64,000 nucleotides of DNA from Phycisphaerae bacterium (GTDB lineage: Bacteria; Planctomycetota; Phycisphaerae; UBA1845; Fen-1342), in the NCBI GenBank assembly GCA_050115495.1, contig JASFQK010000003.1:1-64000 (forward strand). The letters are read 5' to 3'. Shown here piece by piece: positions 22,998-63,923 of the stretch (its first letter is position 1; every line of letters starts with the position of its first letter). A program made the position numbers and the translations under genes. Under the pieces are notes generated by a model. That model saw only the letters and a program-made list of their open reading frames with translations. It did no database searches and had not been told where the DNA came from.

Positions 22998-25900
22998 ATG
23001 AAAGCAGCTAACACTTATGTGAGGGTCGCTGCGTTAGCTTCCCTCGGGGTACTTCTATTGGCACAGTCCGCCTTCGCCCTCGAGCCCGTCGGTGACCCCG
23101 TCCTGTGCGGTCGAGACGGAGGCTGGATGCAGCGGTTCGTCGTGTACAACACGACGGCCTTCGATCAGATTCAGTTCGCGATGGCGGAGGGCAGCGCGTT
23201 CACCATGCCGGACGGCTTCGATCGGCCGGCGTTCATTCCGGACACATGGGACCAGGCCTGCAACGACAGCGTACGCCTCATTGCCACCGGCCCGGAGACG
23301 AACTCGCTCGAGTTCTGGGTGAAGTTCGACACGCCGCTCGCCACCCCCTTCATGATGTACTACCAGGTCTACGGCATGTCCGCGGGCATGCTGACCGAGA
23401 TCACGGCCGCGTGGAACGGTGAGGAGTGGACGCTTGCCGGCGATTCGCCTTGGTCGAACGCCCGCGTCGACTGCGCCTGCCTCCACATGGGCTCGCTGTC
23501 GCTGCTGACCGATCCCGCCGATCAGGTTTGCTACGGCATCGGCGACACCGTCACCATCAATGTGTTCATGTCGGACATCATGGATCCCTACGCCATCGTC
23601 GGTGGCCAGTTCTTCCTCTCCTATAACGCGGCCAAGCTGCAGTTCGTTGAGATGACCGCCGGTGAGGATCCGTTCCTCAACCAGATCTACGAGCACGTCG
23701 ATCCGCTGGCCGGCACGATCGACTACGGCGTCGGCCTGAACTTCGGCGGCGTCGGCACGATCGAAGACTCGGTCATGGCCGTGATCACCTTCACCGCCAT
23801 CAACGAGATCTGCCTGACCGACAGCCTGGTCACCTTCCGGGACAACGAGCCGCCGTCCATGCTGACCTCCGGCTGCTGCGGCGACGTCTGTCCGTTGCTC
23901 TACGAGCTGGCGGCCATCGAGATCGACAGCACCCCGCCGGCCTTCGACAACTGCTCGGGCACGCCCGAGGAGCCGGCAGAGGTTACGGTCGAGTGCCATC
24001 TGCTCGACAGCATGTACCCGGTCTACGACTCGTTCGGCAACCTCCTGGTGACGGCGCAGGACGTCTGCGACGATCCGGATGACCTGACCGACGACGTCAT
24101 GGTCACGTTCAACGAAGAGCGTGAGGACGGCCCCTGCGACGCGACCTACACGCTGACCCGCACCTGGACGGCCACTGACTTCTGCGGCAACGCCGCCGAC
24201 TGCGTGATGATCATCCACGTCCAGGACACGACGGCGCCCTGCCTCGCCGGTTGCCCGCGCGACGCCACCGTCGAGTGCAGCGATCTGGACACGCTCTTCC
24301 CGGTGTACGACGAGTTTGACAACCTGCTGGTGACGGCGACCGACAATTGCGATCCGAACCCGGTCGTCAGCTTCACCGAGGAGCGCGAGTACCCCGATCC
24401 GGAATGCCTCGGGACGTTCTTCCTGACCCGCGTCTGGGAGGCCACGGACGAGTGCGGTAACACCGCCTACTGCGAGCAGTTCCTGACCGTGCAGGACACG
24501 ACGGCCCCCGAGTGGGTCGATCCGGACAACCTGCCGCCGCACATCACCGTGACCTGCGATGCGGTCCCGGAGGTCGTGCACCCGCTGGCGACCGACAACT
24601 GCGCCGAGCCGCGCCTCACCTACACCGAGGACGTGAGCGAGCACGGCGAGTGCCAGACGTACACCATCACGCGCACGTGGGTCTATGACGACTACTGCGG
24701 CAACTCGATCTCGCACACGCAGCTCATCTCGGTTGTGGACAATCTCCCGCCGCAGTTCGCTTTCTGCCCGGAGGACGTCACCGTCGAGTGTGACGCGGTT
24801 CCGGAAGTCCCCGTCATGGAAGCCACCGACAACTGCCCGGATTCGATTCCGGAGGTTTCCTTCGTCGAGTTCCAGACGATGCTCCCGAATCCGGCCTGCC
24901 CGGAGCACTACCGGCTGCGGCGCGCCTGGACGGCCACCGACGGCTGCGGCAACTCCTGCGAGTGCGTGCAGCTCATCACCGTCGTCGACACCACGCCGCC
25001 GGAGATCACCTGCCCTGAGCCGATCGTGGTGAAGGCCGACGTGGGTACCTGTGAAGCGGTGCTCTGCCCCGGCATGGCCGCCGCTGAGGACAACTGCGAT
25101 GACCACGTCGACGTCTTCGGCTTCCGCGACGACGGCCTGGGTGTCTGCTCCGACCCGTACCCGGTCGGCACGACGACGATCACCTGGACCGCTCGTGACA
25201 ACTGCGGGAACGAGAACTCCTGCGACCAGACCGTGACCGTGCTGCCGTACAACGACATGCTGGTCTCGCTGGCGATTCAGGCCAGCTTCCCGTGCCAGTT
25301 CGCGAGCACGCTGGAACGCTGCATCACCTTCGAGCTCTGGAACTGCTCGGAGCCCGGCATGGATCCCGTCGAGTACGAGACCATGATCACGTTCGAGTGC
25401 CCGGAGCAGGGTGCCACCGTCGCGGTGGCGATGGACGTCCTGCTCGAGGACGTGCCCTGCGGTCTGTACACCTGCGTGACGGCCCGCGACAAGCTCCACT
25501 CGCTGCGGGTGACGCTCGGGTCGCCTGAGTTCGCCATGAGCGACAACATGTACGTGGCCGACTTCATCGGCGCGGAGAAGCTGCTGGTTGGCGGAAACGC
25601 CAACGACGACTGCGTGATTGACATCCGCGACTACGGCTTCTTCATCTGTGAGTGGGCCCTCCACTACGACAGCAACGGTGACTTCATCGACGATGGCAAC
25701 ACGCCGTGCGGCATGTTCATCAAGCACGCCGACTTCGACGGCAACGGTATCGTTTGGCAGGAAGACTACATGTACATCCGTGACAACTTCCTGTTCGAAT
25801 GCGATCCGGATTGCTGCGTCGTCGGCCGCATGGGCGGCAAAGAGGCCATCACCCGCATCTCCGTGGCCGAGCTGCGCAAGCAGGGCCTCGGCGACCTGGT

Positions 25901-26012
25901 CATCGCCGACCTCAACCGCGACGGCTGGCTGGATACGGCGGATATGAACGCGTTCATGCAGGGCGTCCGACCTCAGCGCCCGGGCGTGAGCGGCGAGGTC
26001 ATCCGCCCGTAG
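22998..26012 (+). CDS. Large secreted Cys-rich protein: cohesin-like domain, five HYR-like repeats and dockerin/EF-hand-like C-terminal motifs
   Basis: Signal peptide (SAFA), GGQFFLSYNAAKLQF...MAVITFTA, repeats DTTxP..CP..TVEC..ATDNC..TRTWTATD.CGN, and DFDGNG/DLNRDG loops. Confidence 0.85.
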   Translation: MKAANTYVRVAALASLGVLLLAQSAFALEPVGDPVLCGRDGGWMQRFVVYNTTAFDQIQFAMAEGSAFTMPDGFDRPAFIPDTWDQACNDSVRLIATGPETNSLEFWVKFDTPLATPFMMYYQVYGMSAGMLTEITAAWNGEEWTLAGDSPWSNARVDCACLHMGSLSLLTDPADQVCYGIGDTVTINVFMSDIMDPYAIVGGQFFLSYNAAKLQFVEMTAGEDPFLNQIYEHVDPLAGTIDYGVGLNFGGVGTIEDSVMAVITFTAINEICLTDSLVTFRDNEPPSMLTSGCCGDVCPLLYELAAIEIDSTPPAFDNCSGTPEEPAEVTVECHLLDSMYPVYDSFGNLLVTAQDVCDDPDDLTDDVMVTFNEEREDGPCDATYTLTRTWTATDFCGNAADCVMIIHVQDTTAPCLAGCPRDATVECSDLDTLFPVYDEFDNLLVTATDNCDPNPVVSFTEEREYPDPECLGTFFLTRVWEATDECGNTAYCEQFLTVQDTTAPEWVDPDNLPPHITVTCDAVPEVVHPLATDNCAEPRLTYTEDVSEHGECQTYTITRTWVYDDYCGNSISHTQLISVVDNLPPQFAFCPEDVTVECDAVPEVPVMEATDNCPDSIPEVSFVEFQTMLPNPACPEHYRLRRAWTATDGCGNSCECVQLITVVDTTPPEITCPEPIVVKADVGTCEAVLCPGMAAAEDNCDDHVDVFGFRDDGLGVCSDPYPVGTTTITWTARDNCGNENSCDQTVTVLPYNDMLVSLAIQASFPCQFASTLERCITFELWNCSEPGMDPVEYETMITFECPEQGATVAVAMDVLLEDVPCGLYTCVTARDKLHSLRVTLGSPEFAMSDNMYVADFIGAEKLLVGGNANDDCVIDIRDYGFFICEWALHYDSNGDFIDDGNTPCGMFIKHADFDGNGIVWQEDYMYIRDNFLFECDPDCCVVGRMGGKEAITRISVAELRKQGLGDLVIADLNRDGWLDTADMNAFMQGVRPQRPGVSGEVIRP

Positions 26013-26066
26013 GGCGGCGACTGACCGCTGACAGCCGCCACCGCGGCGGCTGATCCGAAGACTGTT

Positions 26067-26105
26067 GCCGGCCGGCGCGCGACCTATTGGTCACGCGCCG
26101 GCCGG
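26067..26105 (+). terminator. Hairpin downstream of the HYR-repeat gene
   Basis: CCGGCCGGCGCGCGACC-TATT-GGTCACGCGCCGGCCGG, a near-perfect stem. Confidence 0.5.
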
Positions 26106-26191
26106 ACTCGGCTGCGATGTGCAGATTTGTGTTCTCTGTGCCGTCTTGTTTTGTCTTGTTTGCGAGCCTGATTCAGGCAGAGGGCGTTACC

Positions 26192-26965
26192 ATGTTGGCT
26201 TTAGCATCCAACCGGCTCTTCATGTTCTGCGCGTGTGCATTACTTTTCTCCTGGGCGGTCTGGCCGTCGTCGGCGCAGGCTGACGTGGATCTGGACCTGC
26301 GCGTCGTCGAGCTGGCCTACGGTCCCGGCTATGCCGAGGCGGACCTCTGGGCCGTCTGCGACAGCCCGGTTCCGCAGGCGATCGGCGGCATGTCGGTGAT
26401 CCTCGTCTGGGATCCCGAGGTCCTCGAGGGCGTCAGTATCAACAGTCTCGAAGGCCCCTATGACTGGGTCAACGAGGACGGGAACCCGCTGGAGGGCTTC
26501 TACGATGACAGCGCCATGGACGGTCTCAACGAGACCTTCCTCGACGGCGATGCCCTCTACATGAATTTCGTCGATTTCGGGGTCGATCTCTACGTCGATC
26601 AGGACGGGTTGTGGGTCGGCCGCTTCACCTTCGAGAAGAAACGCTGCTACGGTCCCGCCATGCTGACCATCGTTCCGGAGCTCGGCGCATACTCCCACAC
26701 CGTCGTCTATGACGGCATCCATCCGGGCGGCCAGGTCACCGGCGACCTCGATGAGGTCGATCTCATGCCGCCACCGATCCCCGGTGACATGAACTGCGAC
26801 GGCTTCGTCAACAACTTCGACATCAAGCCGTTCGTGCTGGCGGTCAGCGACCCCGAGGCCTATGCCGAGCATTACCCGTGCTGCGACATCATGTTCGGCG
26901 ATCTCACCGGCGACGGGCTCGTCAACAACTTTGATATCAAGCCGTTCCTCGAACTGCTGAGGTAA
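26192..26965 (+). CDS. Secreted protein with a cohesin-like domain and C-terminal dockerin-like domain
   Basis: Signal peptide (SAQA), IGGMSVILVWDPEVLE..VGRFTF, and duplicated GDMNCDGFVNNFDIKPF / GDLTGDGLVNNFDIKPF. Confidence 0.8.
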   Translation: MLALASNRLFMFCACALLFSWAVWPSSAQADVDLDLRVVELAYGPGYAEADLWAVCDSPVPQAIGGMSVILVWDPEVLEGVSINSLEGPYDWVNEDGNPLEGFYDDSAMDGLNETFLDGDALYMNFVDFGVDLYVDQDGLWVGRFTFEKKRCYGPAMLTIVPELGAYSHTVVYDGIHPGGQVTGDLDEVDLMPPPIPGDMNCDGFVNNFDIKPFVLAVSDPEAYAEHYPCCDIMFGDLTGDGLVNNFDIKPFLELLR

Positions 26966-58670: not shown

Positions 58671-61517
58671 CTATCCGCCGATGTCGATCGGGATACGCAG
58701 GACCTCGTCCTGACTGGAACGTTCCCGCAGCCGCACGTAGCCGACCGGCCGCGTGCCGTCCGGGATGTCCTTCAACTTGCTGGCGGCCTCGAAGCTCAGG
58801 TGCAGCGGCACGCTCGGCACGAGGTTAAGAGCGTCCTCGCCGCCCTGTGTGACCTCGACCGCCACCGGCGCCCCGAACAACCGATCGATCTGCACCGTGA
58901 CCGGCGTTTTGCGCTGATCGTCGGCGATGGCGAAGCCAGCGTGGATGACGACCTGGAGCGATTTCTTCCCGCGCGTGCTCACGATCCCATCGAACACGTG
59001 CCCGTCGAACGCCGACTGGTAGATGGCCTCGTCGCCGTCCTTGACCAGCACACCGATGTCGGTGACCGTCGCATAGTCTTCCGGCGCGAGCTCCAAGTGC
59101 AGCCGCAGCCGATTGAACCGCTCGTCCAGGCTCACCGAGTAGGTCAATTCGTCCTTGAGCCCCTTGAACTCGGCGTCCTTCTGCATGCGGAAGCCTTCGA
59201 TCTGGCCGTCGCCGCTGGCCGCGATCCGCCGCTCGAACATGTTCGTCACCGTCAGGTCGCCGGCGGGCCTCTCGGGGTTACCTTCAGTGAGGATGGGCGG
59301 GGCGGCGTGGATGCCGAAGAACTGCACCTTCAGTTCGTACGGCCAAGACTCGTCCGGACGGTTGGACACGACGGGCACTTCCCACACGCCGGGCGTCAGG
59401 TCGTCCGTGAATGTCCAGGTCGCCTCGCGCTTGCCGTTTTCCGTGTCGAGGCGCTGCGCACCCGACCGGAACTGCCGGCCGTACGGATCGAAGATGCGGT
59501 CCATGCCGGCCCTCGACTTCGCTCCCTCCGGCGCCGTCAGCACCAGCCTCATGCTCGACGCCCCCGGCGGCACGGCGACGAAGTACCGATCCGGCAGCCA
59601 GCCGGCGACCGTACGCTTCGTGAACGTCTGCGTGAAGTTGTTCCCCTCGTTGAAGCGGTAGGGCACGATCACGGTATTGACCAGCCGGAACGCGGGCAAC
59701 CCGTCCACGAGCCCGTCCACGGTACCCACGTGCAGTCCCGGTTCGGTGAGCTGGGCGGCGTCGTACTCCACGAAAACGCGGGCCACCTGCTCGCTGTGCA
59801 GGTACACGGTCTCCTGGGCCACGCGGCACCAGGGCGTGTTCGAACGCAACGTGTACTGCCGCGTGAAATCCGTTCGCGTGGCCATGTCCGTCGTCGGGGC
59901 GAAGATCGGTGCGATGGTGAACGCTTGGCGGTCGTCGCTCGGGAAGTACGTGCTCCGCCAGTACGCCGCCGGTGCCTCGCCCTCGTAGCCGTGCGGGCAG
60001 GGCGTCGAGATCTCGTAGCCGATCACCGGGTCGTCCTTCGCCGCCGGCAGTAGCTTGGCTAGCACTTCGGCGGCCTTGCTCACCTCGGGCAGGCCCCAGC
60101 CGGAGTCGAGGAACGTCGTGCCCTTCACGGGCCGCCCGGCGAGCCACAGCGCCCGCCGCACGTCAAAGGAGCGCACGTGCACGGCCGGATCCGTCTGCAT
60201 GGCGTTGCTGATGAGCAGGGCACACAGGCCAGCGCAATACGGGCTGGCCATGCTCGTGCCGGCCCAGAAGTCACCGTGGCGCGTCCAGCGCGGCACGGTC
60301 GACGTCGACCAGCCCGGCACCGCCACGTCCGGCTTGTCCAATTCACCGCCGCGCGAGCTGAACAGCGTGATGACCGGCTCGTCCAGGTGCCAGCCGGCGA
60401 CATCGCGCCCGCTGTCGGCGGCCATCATCGCCGCCACGGAGATGGCCGCACTCGCCGCCGCCGGCGTGCCGACGGTGGACAGGCCCGGACCGGCGTTGCC
60501 GGCGGACGTGCAGAACACCAGGTACGGGTTCGCGTATAGGGCTTCGTCCACCACCTCGTCGATGTCCGAGTTGCCCTCGATTTCCGAGTCGACGCCGTAG
60601 GACAGGTTGCACACGACCGGCACGTTGTGCTCGCGGGCGAAACGGGCCGCGTAGGCCAGGGCCTTCCGCTTGCTCTCCGTCACGCTGATACCGCCCAGGG
60701 CCCCGCGCCCGATCTTCAGGCTGATCACCTTCGCCCCGGGAGCGACGCCGTTGAGACCGTCCTGGTTGTTGATGCGGTAACCGGCGGCGATGCCGGCCAC
60801 GTGCGTGCCGTGCGCCCCGTTATCGAAGTGGAACGTCACCTTCGCCTGGCGGAGGAAGATATTCGCGGCGAAGGCCATGGGCACGATCTGCACTTCCGGC
60901 TGTTCGCGATACAGCGTGAAAGTCTCGTAGGCCAGCTTGTAGTTATGCAGCGCCTTCTCGTCGGCGAAGCTGCGGTCCAGGTTGGTGTCCACGTAGCAGA
61001 CGGCCTGGTCGTCGCCGTCGCCGGCCAGCGCGGTCACCAGCACCGGAAAGACGTCGTCGGTCGTGCCGTTGTCATTCAGGTCCGGCTGATCGGCGTTGAC
61101 GAACTTGCTCTCCTTGAACTCGCCGAACCACCAGCGCCGCTCCTCGGCCGCGGCGGGCAGCGCCGGCGGGGTGTACTCGATGGGCGTGCCGTCGTTGTCA
61201 TGCTTGATCAGCATGCCGCTCTGCTCGTCGAGGAGGATACGCAGCAGGTCCACGTCACCGTCGCCGGTGAAGTCCTGCACGTCGATGACTTTGACCTCGC
61301 CGTCGGGCGTGTGGGTCAGGCCGGGGATGGACGGATCGACGCCCGTATCCATGACGGCAATCACGACGCCGCGGCCGTCGCTGTTCGGATGGGCGGCGAG
61401 GAAGGCGTCCACGCCGCAGGTGGACAAGGAAAGCTGCGTCCAGCCGTGCTGGTTCTGGGCGAGGCCGGCACTCATCCCGAGCGCCGCAATGGCGAGCAGC
61501 ACCGCATACTTGCGCAT
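58671..61517 (-). CDS. Secreted S8 subtilase, tripeptidyl-peptidase II-like
   Basis: Signal peptide, DGRGVVIAVMDTGVDP, HGTHVAGIAAG, SAGNAGPGLSTVG and GTSMASP. GGAGG RBS. Confidence 0.9.
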   Translation of the reverse strand: MRKYAVLLAIAALGMSAGLAQNQHGWTQLSLSTCGVDAFLAAHPNSDGRGVVIAVMDTGVDPSIPGLTHTPDGEVKVIDVQDFTGDGDVDLLRILLDEQSGMLIKHDNDGTPIEYTPPALPAAAEERRWWFGEFKESKFVNADQPDLNDNGTTDDVFPVLVTALAGDGDDQAVCYVDTNLDRSFADEKALHNYKLAYETFTLYREQPEVQIVPMAFAANIFLRQAKVTFHFDNGAHGTHVAGIAAGYRINNQDGLNGVAPGAKVISLKIGRGALGGISVTESKRKALAYAARFAREHNVPVVCNLSYGVDSEIEGNSDIDEVVDEALYANPYLVFCTSAGNAGPGLSTVGTPAAASAAISVAAMMAADSGRDVAGWHLDEPVITLFSSRGGELDKPDVAVPGWSTSTVPRWTRHGDFWAGTSMASPYCAGLCALLISNAMQTDPAVHVRSFDVRRALWLAGRPVKGTTFLDSGWGLPEVSKAAEVLAKLLPAAKDDPVIGYEISTPCPHGYEGEAPAAYWRSTYFPSDDRQAFTIAPIFAPTTDMATRTDFTRQYTLRSNTPWCRVAQETVYLHSEQVARVFVEYDAAQLTEPGLHVGTVDGLVDGLPAFRLVNTVIVPYRFNEGNNFTQTFTKRTVAGWLPDRYFVAVPPGASSMRLVLTAPEGAKSRAGMDRIFDPYGRQFRSGAQRLDTENGKREATWTFTDDLTPGVWEVPVVSNRPDESWPYELKVQFFGIHAAPPILTEGNPERPAGDLTVTNMFERRIAASGDGQIEGFRMQKDAEFKGLKDELTYSVSLDERFNRLRLHLELAPEDYATVTDIGVLVKDGDEAIYQSAFDGHVFDGIVSTRGKKSLQVVIHAGFAIADDQRKTPVTVQIDRLFGAPVAVEVTQGGEDALNLVPSVPLHLSFEAASKLKDIPDGTRPVGYVRLRERSSQDEVLRIPIDIGG

Positions 61518-61787
61518 AATAAGCACCTCCAGTTAGCGGGTTTTGTCCCGTGTGTAAGCTTCCCACTGTAACGCCCGGGCCGGGCCTCGTAAAACCCGGG
61601 CAGGGGCCGAGAATCCATGCCCTGACGGCTCGTGACCGACGTGCACGCCCGCGCGCTTTGCGTTCGGTTCGCGGTTGCCGCCTGCTATAATGGCGCTGTC
61701 TCCGCCCGCGGCGGGTCAGCCATGGAGGCGAGTCCCCCGGTCCACGAGTCTGCGCCGCGGCCGGAAGTACACCGTCAGGAGGATGTA

Positions 61788-63923
61788 ATGAGGCACCAAG
61801 GCGCAGCTTTGTGCTACAACATTCGACAGTCGCTGCTGGCGTTGCTGGCGGCGGCGCTGCTGGCCCCGGCCGCACTGGCCGCCGACCGCTTCGTCGTCGT
61901 CGAGCACGTCGCAGCGCTGGGCTGAACGGCCGATCCCCCTTACGCCGGTCAGGCGTTGGATTGGCTGCTCGCCGACTATCCGGACCTGTTCACCTTTGTG
62001 CAGATCCGCGTCGGCTGCGATGGCGCTACGCCCTGGGGCGACTTCCGCTCCAACGACTTCTACCAGGTAACGCAGACCCCGGACGTCTTCTTCGACGGCA
62101 TCGACGACGTGGCCGGTTCGTTCGGTTCGACAGAGGACCAGTACAACGAATACCTGATGCACCTGCTGCCGCGGGCCATGACGCCGACGGACGTCACCCT
62201 GGACGTTACGGTGTACCCGGTCACCGCCGAGGTCTTCCGCGTCAGCGTGCGGGCTTGCCTCGCCGCCGGCGCGCCCGCCCGCACCGTGCGCCTCTACCTG
62301 GTCCAGTTGCTCGACTACTGGCCCGGGAACCCTGACTACTCCCGCAACACGTTCGTGCAGGCCATGCCGACCGTGGACGTCGACCTTGCCGCCGGCGATT
62401 GCCAGAGCGTGAGCCACTACGTCACCTTCGACGCCACGAGCTGGGAGTTCAAGAACGACATCCGCCTCGTCGCCTGGGCCCAGGAGCCGCAGGACACGAG
62501 CCCGCCCGGCGACCGCGCCGAGATTCTCCAGGGCGCGGCCTCACCCTGGCCGTTCACGCCCGACTGCAACAACAACGCCATCGCCGACGACAAGGACATC
62601 GCCGCCGGCACCTCGCTCGATCTCAACGGCAACGGCATTCCCGACGAGTGCGAGCCCGCCCTCCGCGGCATCGACCTGTGGACCACGCCCGGCGGCGGCA
62701 CGACCTACCACGACTTCGCTTTTTCGCCGGTCCCGCCCGACTTCTTCGGCCCGGGCTCCGATCCGTTCGAGGGGCAGGTGGCCCTCGTCGGCCAGCCGCT
62801 CCCGACGGAGCCGCCGGGATTGCTCGGCCCGACCGACCTGGTCGTCGAACGCGTCACCGACGCCGACGTGATCGACATCGCCGCCGTGAGCGAGGTGGGC
62901 CTGGAGATCCGCGCGCTCAACCTGGTCTCCACCGAGCCGGTCGTCGTGACCTACGGTGGGGGGCAGGCCCCCGAGCTGTGGACGCTGCACGTGTGCCTGT
63001 CCGACCTGTGGCAGCCCTCGGGCTTCATGACCATCTATCGCAACTGCGCCGACGGCGGCACGTTCGATGCCTTCCTGCCCGTGCTCCCCAAGCTCATCTT
63101 TACCCGCGAGGGCGACGGCACCGAGCGCGTCTTCGATTTCGGTATCGCCGGCGTCGAGCCGCTGAACTTCGAAGTCTTCGGCGGCCGGTGGGTCGTCGAG
63201 CCCGATCCGGCGTTGGCGATCATCAGCGCTGACGAAGGCATCGTCGTGGACAGCAACTGCGATGGCGTGTTCGACCTGCCGCTGCTCGGGACGTCGCGCT
63301 TCACGGCGGGCATCCGCGCCGTGCCCTGCGACCGCAGCACCTGGCCCGGCGCCGAGCAGCGCAAGCGCCTCACTACTTTCGGCGCTGCGCACAGCACCCT
63401 CGGCCTGCTGCCCGCCCAGATCCCCGGCGCCGACACCGACGGCGACGGTTTGCCCGACGACGCCGACAACTGCCCGGACGACTGGAACCCGTTGCAGGAA
63501 GACGCCGACGGCGATGCCTTCGGCGACCTCTGCGATAATTGCGCCTACATCGACAACCCGTTCCAGGAAGATGCGGACGGCGACGGCGTGGGCGACCCGT
63601 GCGACAACTGCCGCGATGAGTATAACCCGTTGCAGGAAGACGAAGACAGCGACGGCGTCGGCGACGCCTGCGACCAATGCCTCGGCACGCCGGCGGGCAC
63701 GCCGGTCTTCGAGAATGGCTGTCCGTACCCCCGCGGCGATCTCAACTGCGACACCGTGGTGAACAACTTCGACATCAAGGCTTTCGTGCTCGCCGTCTCG
63801 AACCCGCTAGCCTATGCCGAAGCGTACCCCGATTGCCTGATCGACCTCGCCGACGTCAACGCCGACGGCTCGGTCAACAACTTCGACATCAGCCCGTTCG
63901 TGCAGTTGCTCTCCGCACCGTAA
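61788..63923 (+). CDS. Probable secreted selenoprotein (711 aa, Sec at codon 46): Omp28/thioredoxin-like domain, TSP3 Ca-binding repeats and dockerin-like tail
   Basis: AGGAGG RBS, ATG 61788 and signal peptide, then a single in-frame TGA at 61923-61925, after which the frame stays open to 63923. Sequence reads [30 protein letters not shown]. Confidence 0.75.
61926..61965 (+). promoter_or_regulatory. Putative bacterial SECIS element
   Basis: Lower stem GCCGATCC/GGATTGGC and upper stem ACGCC/GGCGT. The apical loop GGTCA starts with G, 21 nt after the UGA. Confidence 0.65.

Follow-up and report, generated by a model that had tools for sequence, protein, structure and literature searches.

The first 64,000 nucleotides of contig JASFQK010000003.1 (positions 1–64,000, forward strand) of the Phycisphaerae bacterium assembly GCA_050115495.1, hereafter the window, carry near their end a gene with a TGA at codon 46 that is almost certainly read through as selenocysteine (Sec, U). 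From its sequence, we propose that the product is an exported, 711-residue selenoenzyme with a rebuilt active site, in which a Sec46-x-x-Asp49 motif acts together with Cys77 and the catalytic cycle would run through a Sec46–Cys77 bond instead of the bond within a UxxC motif; we assign this reading a probability of about 0.55. CxxC and UxxC motifs are the signature of thioredoxin-fold oxidoreductases. The gene and the signals for its recoding are as follows (SECIS, selenocysteine insertion sequence; bSECIS, its bacterial form):

61777–61782 (+), ribosome-binding site AGGAGG, read from the sequence and followed after five bases by ATG 61788
61788–63923 (+), whole gene, 711 codons including one in-frame TGA, read from the sequence and ending in TAA (63921–63923)
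61788–61880 (+), predicted signal peptide, residues 1–31, a hydrophobic leader read from the sequence and ending in Ala-Leu-Ala
61923–61925 (+), TGA, codon 46, predicted Sec46; the column in 101 domains holds TGA (59), TGC (36), TGT (5) and AGC (1)
61927–61967 (+), SECIS-type hairpin, identified by folding and conservation and fitting the published bSECIS model
61942–61956 (+), conserved upper stem with the loop GGUCA at 61947–61951, identified by comparison of relatives

The ribosome-binding site, start codon, leader, TGA and downstream frame are all read in the sequence as a first-pass annotation, made from the letters alone, had described them, and homologues have a similar leader preceding the same 'AADRVV' start. 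The next in-frame start, also as described there, is the TTG at 61956, 30 nucleotides (nt) past the TGA, and the database protein P0001 (655 residues) begins at this codon.

Homologues were collected as 102 distinct domains, from 97 loci and two stretches of the organism's own genome, leaving out the weakest matches in genomes of the family; the site column was counted over 101 domains, one row lacking the site. Besides the 59 TGA codons the column contains 41 Cys codons and one Ser codon and no Trp codon, as expected if the UGA occupies, as had been proposed, the position of the first redox Cys in an Omp28/thioredoxin-like domain, and no second stop occurs within any of the domains compared. 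The genome encodes the Sec machinery for which the first-pass annotation had proposed to look, with selA (532 bits), selB (302 bits), selD (367 bits) and tRNA-Sec (66.7 bits) all above cut-off. TGA is otherwise an ordinary stop in this genome, as had been claimed, and terminates 349 of the 807 stop-free stretches longer than 700 codons. An altered genetic code with TGA read as Trp was rejected: there is no TGG in the site column, TGA is a normal stop and tRNA-Trp(CCA) is present. A single sequencing run covers the stretch, in one contig at a depth of 20, with no alternative letters; since this run may be the source of the assembly, it is not an independent confirmation of the TGA. A further run (X2, share 0.05) yielded only short pieces, and no RNA run was listed as containing the stretch. 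None of the findings that had been named as contradicting recoding was therefore encountered, the machinery being present, Trp absent from the column and the single run free of alternative letters.

Of the 72 genomes of the family, 44 have the N-terminal module; a stricter threshold, applied to the 279 genomes of the order, gave 76. A search for paralogues, also proposed earlier, identified three in the organism's own genome, with TGA at the site in one (C14:115094) and Cys in two (C14:112855 and contig C4). The first two lie within C14:115094–112058 (− strand), where near-copies of the module stand in tandem, the TGA copy reading U-GYC and the Cys copy C-SYC. A genome-wide scan combining codon use with a hairpin did not discriminate further selenoproteins (5 TGA candidates versus 9 TAG and 2 TAA) and missed both the C14 paralogue and selD, and a loose DNA pattern run across 21 genomes of the class gave background matches only. 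ARAGORN called a second tRNA-SeC at C3:95769–95868, which the Rfam model does not list and whose fold is unlike tRNA-Sec; the call is probably false.

The hairpin follows the UGA directly. It comprises a 10-pair lower stem (61927–61936 with 61958–61967), a 5-pair upper stem and the GGUCA loop, which starts at 61947, 21 nt past the TGA, so that the two-stem hairpin with a G-initiated loop at 21 nt seen at first pass is confirmed. Its folding energy is −23.6 kcal/mol (z −2.3; 2 of 200 shuffles equal or better; z −1.6 to −2.7 across four windows). Among relatives only the upper stem and the GGU loop are conserved, and the long lower stem is not. The expectation that a bacterial SECIS element would lie immediately 3′ of the UGA is borne out by comparison: the Gly codon 12–21 nt downstream is GGT and closes a stem of at least 4 pairs in 53 of 57 TGA genes versus 7 of 36 Cys genes (the 7 rows that lack this Gly are not counted), where GGT makes up 16% of Gly codons genome-wide. 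At additional loci a GGU hairpin is present in all 20 TGA genes and in one of three Cys genes, two of these loci repeating earlier motifs and maybe being the same genes. Over 49 distinct TGA rows the innermost stem pair is C-G in 34 and G-C in 11. Fisher and Mann-Whitney p-values on the hairpin and Cys77 associations overstate their strength because the genes are kin. The published bSECIS model specifies a loop of 3–9 nt with G first, a stem of 4–16 pairs, a distance of 16–37 nt from the UGA and an energy of −7.5 kcal/mol or lower (PMC13188914), and the window hairpin falls within all four limits; the one-residue insertion in its active-site segment (see below) still leaves the loop within 16–37 nt. 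No Rfam family covers the hairpin. The genome's selD (C36:5956–6891, − strand) is also a TGA gene, with a GUA-loop hairpin 33 nt past the UGA versus 18–21 nt in the Omp28-like family; this distance lies outside a 12–24 nt test and within the published 16–37 nt range.

That the TGA is instead a true stop, arising from a nonsense change or an assembly error and leaving the 655-residue downstream reading frame or no product at all, is very improbable. Its support is that the site segment of the window protein is divergent (EHVAALG versus EEFTxxx), that the N-terminal module of this protein taken alone matches nothing in Pfam or NCBIfam, and that all 17 of the closest database proteins begin past the site, the last being the truncation by standard annotation that had been foreseen. 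Against it, the same TGA recurs in 59 of 101 domains over many genomes without any other stop, the hairpin tracks the TGA genes, and a leader and the first strand lie upstream of the TGA.

The active site departs from its family at three positions and retains a fourth:

61932–61934 (+), Asp49, replacing the second Cys of UxxC; the column is Cys in 94 of 101 domains
62007–62009 (+), Arg74, replacing a conserved His, which is present in 74 of 82 rows of alignment A2 and in 3 of 17 same-architecture relatives
62016–62018 (+), Cys77, a candidate for the relocated partner of Sec46, replacing an Asp that 70 of 82 A2 rows conserve; Cys in 15 of 17 same-architecture relatives
62079–62081 (+), Pro98, at the position expected of the thioredoxin cis-proline and just before strand 3 in the model, its cis form being only presumed; invariant over all 82 rows

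The family pattern is (U/C)-x-x-C plus His-x-x-Asp after strand 2, and HBP35 has both. In the window protein the first motif reads U46-T-A-D49, a single residue is inserted before Y-A-G, and the second motif reads R74-V-G-C77. The WCxxCP motif read at first pass thus holds for the position of the first Cys and fails for the second, which is Asp49 in a site rebuilt with Cys77 and without His74. Cys77 occurs in none of the 94 domains with Cys49 and in four of the six UxxD domains. A metagenome pattern with column 77 left unconstrained gave 11 matches, five of them family genes and six not; four of the family genes are UxxD, all with Cys77 (one repeats locus L038). The 17 same-architecture database relatives share 44–54% identity with the window protein, and among the 150 best database representatives of the group the 59 full-length records all lack Cys77, whereas 4 of the 91 truncated ones have it. 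The module has two further cysteines, Cys157 and Cys205. Of the 82 rows, 35 carry both and 47 carry neither, so the two probably form a structural pair, which leaves Sec46 as the sole partner for Cys77 in the window module. In thioredoxin, column 77 corresponds to the acidic loop that follows strand 2; this loop adjoins the active site (PMC9601870; its cleft, PMC10812433) and contains Asp61, listed among the residues within 11 Å of Cys32 and involved in redox activity (PMC9601870). Taken together, the sequence comparisons modestly favour Cys77 as the relocated partner of Sec46.

A number of observations weigh against the proposal, in its recoding step, in the role given to Cys77 or in the history of that residue. 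With selA matched in 67 of the 72 family genomes there is no Sec-less control group, and no selA was matched in G044, G065 and G066 (87, 62 and 93% complete), three genomes that contain TGA genes. Upper-stem pairs 2 and 3 form in Cys genes as well (28 and 30 of 30), so part of the upper stem is dictated by the protein sequence. A distance of 11 Å exceeds the reach of a bond unless the loop moves. UxxD is tolerated without Cys77, as L094, which has the same architecture, and L084 both combine UxxD with a retained His-x-x-Asp and no Cys77. Most of the 15 Cys77 database records match no fetched locus and start after residue 49, leaving that residue unseen. The Cys77 genes are kin, forming in a quick tree that included the trait columns one clade of seven (Shimodaira–Hasegawa-like approximate likelihood ratio test, SH-aLRT, 87), and Cys77 is thus possibly a single event. 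Resolution is poor in trees built without the trait columns, of which the one with these columns fully removed used fewer rows; in such trees L040 (UxxC, Asp77) groups with L042 (UxxD, Cys77) at 99/92, which implies a joint reversal or a second gain. One orthologue group nevertheless contains a natural series, UxxC with Asp77 (L040), UxxD with Asp77 (L094) and UxxD with Cys77 (the window protein and most others). In this series L094 (G059:C4:12574) is a possible intermediate, having the architecture of the window protein and UxxD, with His-x-x-Asp kept and Cys77 absent.

Loci such as L094 and L084, together with L033, which is UxxS, are also what recommends a single-selenol enzyme, in which Sec46 would act alone and be re-reduced by an outside thiol while Cys77 bonds a partner protein or a second copy, or has a similar role; both PMC13188914 and PMC2398784 include UxxS and UxxT families among the selenoproteins. 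We consider this account rather unlikely, as Cys77 is kept in 15 of 17 relatives and never stands beside Cys49 (0 of 94), which is not expected of independent roles. Less likely still is a metal or heme site in which the U/C, C, H and D side chains serve as ligands and Sec, Asp and Cys have been reordered for a soft metal (Cu, Hg or Zn) or a cofactor. The reciprocal change, Cys to Asp at 49 and Asp to Cys at 77, does preserve the set of side chains, and HBP35, whose structure is the nearest match, binds hemin (PMC2907840) and has H-Y-N-D. Yet the His is lost in 14 of the 17 relatives, the invariant proline before strand 3 is retained, and the thioredoxin activity of HBP35 depends on its two cysteines while its 27-kDa form also binds hemin (PMC2907840).

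In the mechanism that we propose, SelB would bind the GGU loop and insert Sec, and the leader would export the protein. Sec46 could then attack an oxidised target, whether a disulfide, a peroxide or a bound small molecule, and Cys77, which lies next to the active site in the loop that follows strand 2, would resolve the intermediate through a Se–S bond. The predicted barrel domain described below may hold the substrate, perhaps presenting a hydrophobic one, and the dockerin-like tail would retain the protein at the cell surface. The series from UxxC with Asp77 through UxxD with Asp77 to UxxD with Cys77 makes the effect of moving a selenol's partner on redox potential and substrate testable. 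The group also bears on annotation: 91 of its 150 best database representatives start after the site, so that these exported proteins are widely mis-annotated, without signal peptide and active site.

Loci L133, L143 and L149 form a second lineage, a clade of their own (95/95), in which the Cys of UxxC is likewise missing and the His after strand 2 is replaced by a Cys where that strand ends. These genes carry the GGU hairpin at 21 nt and differ in their middle domains. Three residues ahead of their Sec stands another Cys (CxxU), a possible alternative partner, which counts against reading the strand-2 Cys as a parallel to Cys77. The approximately unbiased (AU) test rejects a tree that joins the Cys77 genes with the second lineage in a single exclusive clade (p 0.026); this does not prove two origins, because L040 nests among the Cys77 genes. 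The fuller scenario, in which the resolving Cys moved from the CxxC motif to the post-strand-2 loop, with loss of the catalytic His, to form a long-range Se–S bond in a surface protein with a ligand-binding barrel, and the second lineage converged on this independently, is put forward tentatively and as a whole is slightly doubtful.

Downstream of the signal peptide the gene is predicted to encode six regions (Ig, immunoglobulin; pLDDT, predicted local distance difference test; rmsd, root mean square deviation):

61884–62180 (+), thioredoxin-fold domain, residues 33–131 (AlphaFold2 pLDDT 96; profile matches to thioredoxins and HBP35; fold search)
62187–62555 (+), Ig-like beta-sandwich of Omp28/HBP35 type with Cys157/Cys205 (model; 2r2c, Z 9.3)
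62562–62660 (+), Asp-rich 'DCNNN...NGNGIPDEC' repeat linker (many tblastn matches to residues 257–291)
62661–63428 (+), middle domain of 256 residues, a predicted beta-barrel with no Pfam family (model pLDDT 90.5)
63432–63683 (+), thrombospondin type 3 (TSP3) repeats (Pfam TSP_3, 25.4 bits versus a cut-off of 25)
63726–63920 (+), dockerin-like C-terminal tail (Pfam Dockerin_1, E 0.03, 14.9 bits, below the cut-off of 22.9)

The thioredoxin and Ig module was modelled with AlphaFold2 from 82 sequences, the TGA being read as Cys. Its best structural match is HBP35 (PDB 5y1a; Z 22.8, rmsd 2.6, 215 aligned), followed by Atu2684 (2axo; Z 18.8), with the rest well below; a five-sequence profile (A1) found no real PDB relative. 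The Asp-rich repeat linker is common in the genome's secreted proteins and may bind calcium. The TSP3 repeats and dockerin-like tail anticipated at first pass are present, the latter with a repeated Asp-rich loop pattern visible in its sequence, whereas the 256-residue predicted barrel between the redox module and TSP3 had been missed. For this middle domain the fold matches are tied between DynF (Z 10.6, rmsd 3.5, 147 aligned) and NspA (Z 10.2, rmsd 2.6, 137 aligned). DynF holds a fatty acid. Searches with the middle domain gave no Pfam match, no PDB sequence match and no Foldseek match at E ≤ 0.001, and all Atlas leads were under 0.9 (DUF6073/DUF6004). The barrel domain occurs twice in a row in P0002, P0018 and P0019, and without the redox module in P0018, P0019 and P0021; these tandem copies and its occurrence apart from the redox module mark it as a mobile module.

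A cohesin and HYR protein (22998–26012, its cohesin just above the Pfam cut-off) lies in the window, followed, within 22998–26965, by a 292-residue dockerin-tailed protein without a Pfam match. The tail may dock there, as suggested at first pass, but nearness says little, as the genome holds 160 near-full-length dockerin-like tails versus two cohesin matches (C3:23541–23810 and C25:71693–71980). When the tail and the cohesin at 23.5 kb were modelled as a complex, both chains being folded without alignments, the score was 0.18 versus a mark of 0.34, which speaks neither for nor against pairing. Among the paralogues of the redox module, the one at C4:106116 onward (+) is a Cys form (C-GSC) fused to several CxxCH heme-binding motifs; its relatives have multiheme cytochrome Pfam matches, and some of its clade carry TGA (L044, L070 and L073). 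This heme-motif paralogue could be an electron source for the redox module.

Upstream of the gene lies a candidate promoter element:

61683–61691 (+), extended −10-like element TGCTATAAT, the sole TGnTATAAT in the window

This pattern is expected 0.04 times in the window and was present in 4 of 100 shuffles; a sigma-70 scan found no full site. By eye, −10-like hexamers are present upstream of L134, L042, L132 and L137, and none was noted for L040. The upstream neighbour (58671–61526, − strand) encodes a 951-residue secreted subtilase (Pfam Peptidase_S8) and is divergent from the gene. With the −10-like element about 100 nt upstream and the subtilase pointing the other way, the gene probably has its own promoter. 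No such subtilase neighbour was seen among the long open reading frames at six orthologue loci, several of which have short flanks.

Omp28-like selenoproteins have been known since 2008, and the rebuilt active site is the new part; the first-pass annotation, which presented a hidden selenoprotein, was right about the recoding and missed that the kind had already been described. GOS_C was predicted in 2008 as thioredoxin-like with a conserved UxxC, without functional evidence (Zhang & Gladyshev, PMC2398784), and is listed with NF045500 and the motif UxxC in a 2026 review (PMC13188914). The term 'UxxD' is absent from the main texts of both articles, including the review's prokaryotic selenoprotein table, and our literature search, which covered main texts (UxxD members may be listed in Figure 6G or Dataset S2 of PMC2398784 or in the BSepDB family table), found no account of a variant with UxxD and a relocated Cys; neither PMC13326102 nor bioRxiv 2022.07.06.499078 mentions 'Omp28' in its main text. 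NCBIfam NF045500, 'Omp28-related selenoprotein', matches 79 of 82 relatives at E ≤ 0.01, weakly (best 3.5e-25), and does not match the window's own redox module; the whole protein scores 94.6 bits against a cut-off of 200, its best stretch lying in the repeat tail, and the organism's genome has 28 matches, none above cut-off. The window protein resembles GOS_C/NF045500 in its thioredoxin-like fold and in having Sec at the first redox position, and differs in having UxxD rather than UxxC, Cys77, no His74, the extra barrel domain and the dockerin-like tail.

The hairpin agrees with the bSECIS consensus (PMC13188914, Figure 2 legend) in its 5-nt loop beginning GG, its 5-pair upper stem and its distance of 21 nt from the UGA, with no difference found. 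The 'Planctosome', a hypothetical cohesin–dockerin complex proposed for Phycisphaerae and concerning peptidases (PMC6461901), offers a parallel in its dockerin-type tails and TSP3 repeats, and the cohesin and HYR protein at 22998–26012 resembles the proposed adaptor (PMC6461901); the tail of the window protein falls below the Pfam cut-off, and tails outnumber cohesin matches by 160 to 2. By fold, the middle domain is closest to the DynF beta-barrel (PDB 6ubl), with NspA, an outer-membrane barrel, level with it; at sequence level there is no match. The two-domain thioredoxin and Ig-like fold is common to the window protein, HBP35 of Porphyromonas gingivalis (5y1a) and Atu2684/DUF1223 (2axo). 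HBP35 is exported to the surface and has a thioredoxin activity that requires its two cysteines (PMC2907840); such thiol-disulfide reductase activity is a feature of HBP35, whereas the window protein is known from sequence and model. The matching columns of HBP35 read 'EVFTAEWCGYC' and 'HYND', and HBP35 differs in having CxxC, no Sec and another C-terminal domain, with 9% identity in the structural alignment to the window model. Within the Omp28/HBP35 superfamily the window protein is therefore predicted to share the order of thioredoxin and Ig domains, and in place of His-x-x-Asp it has Arg74-Val-Gly-Cys77.

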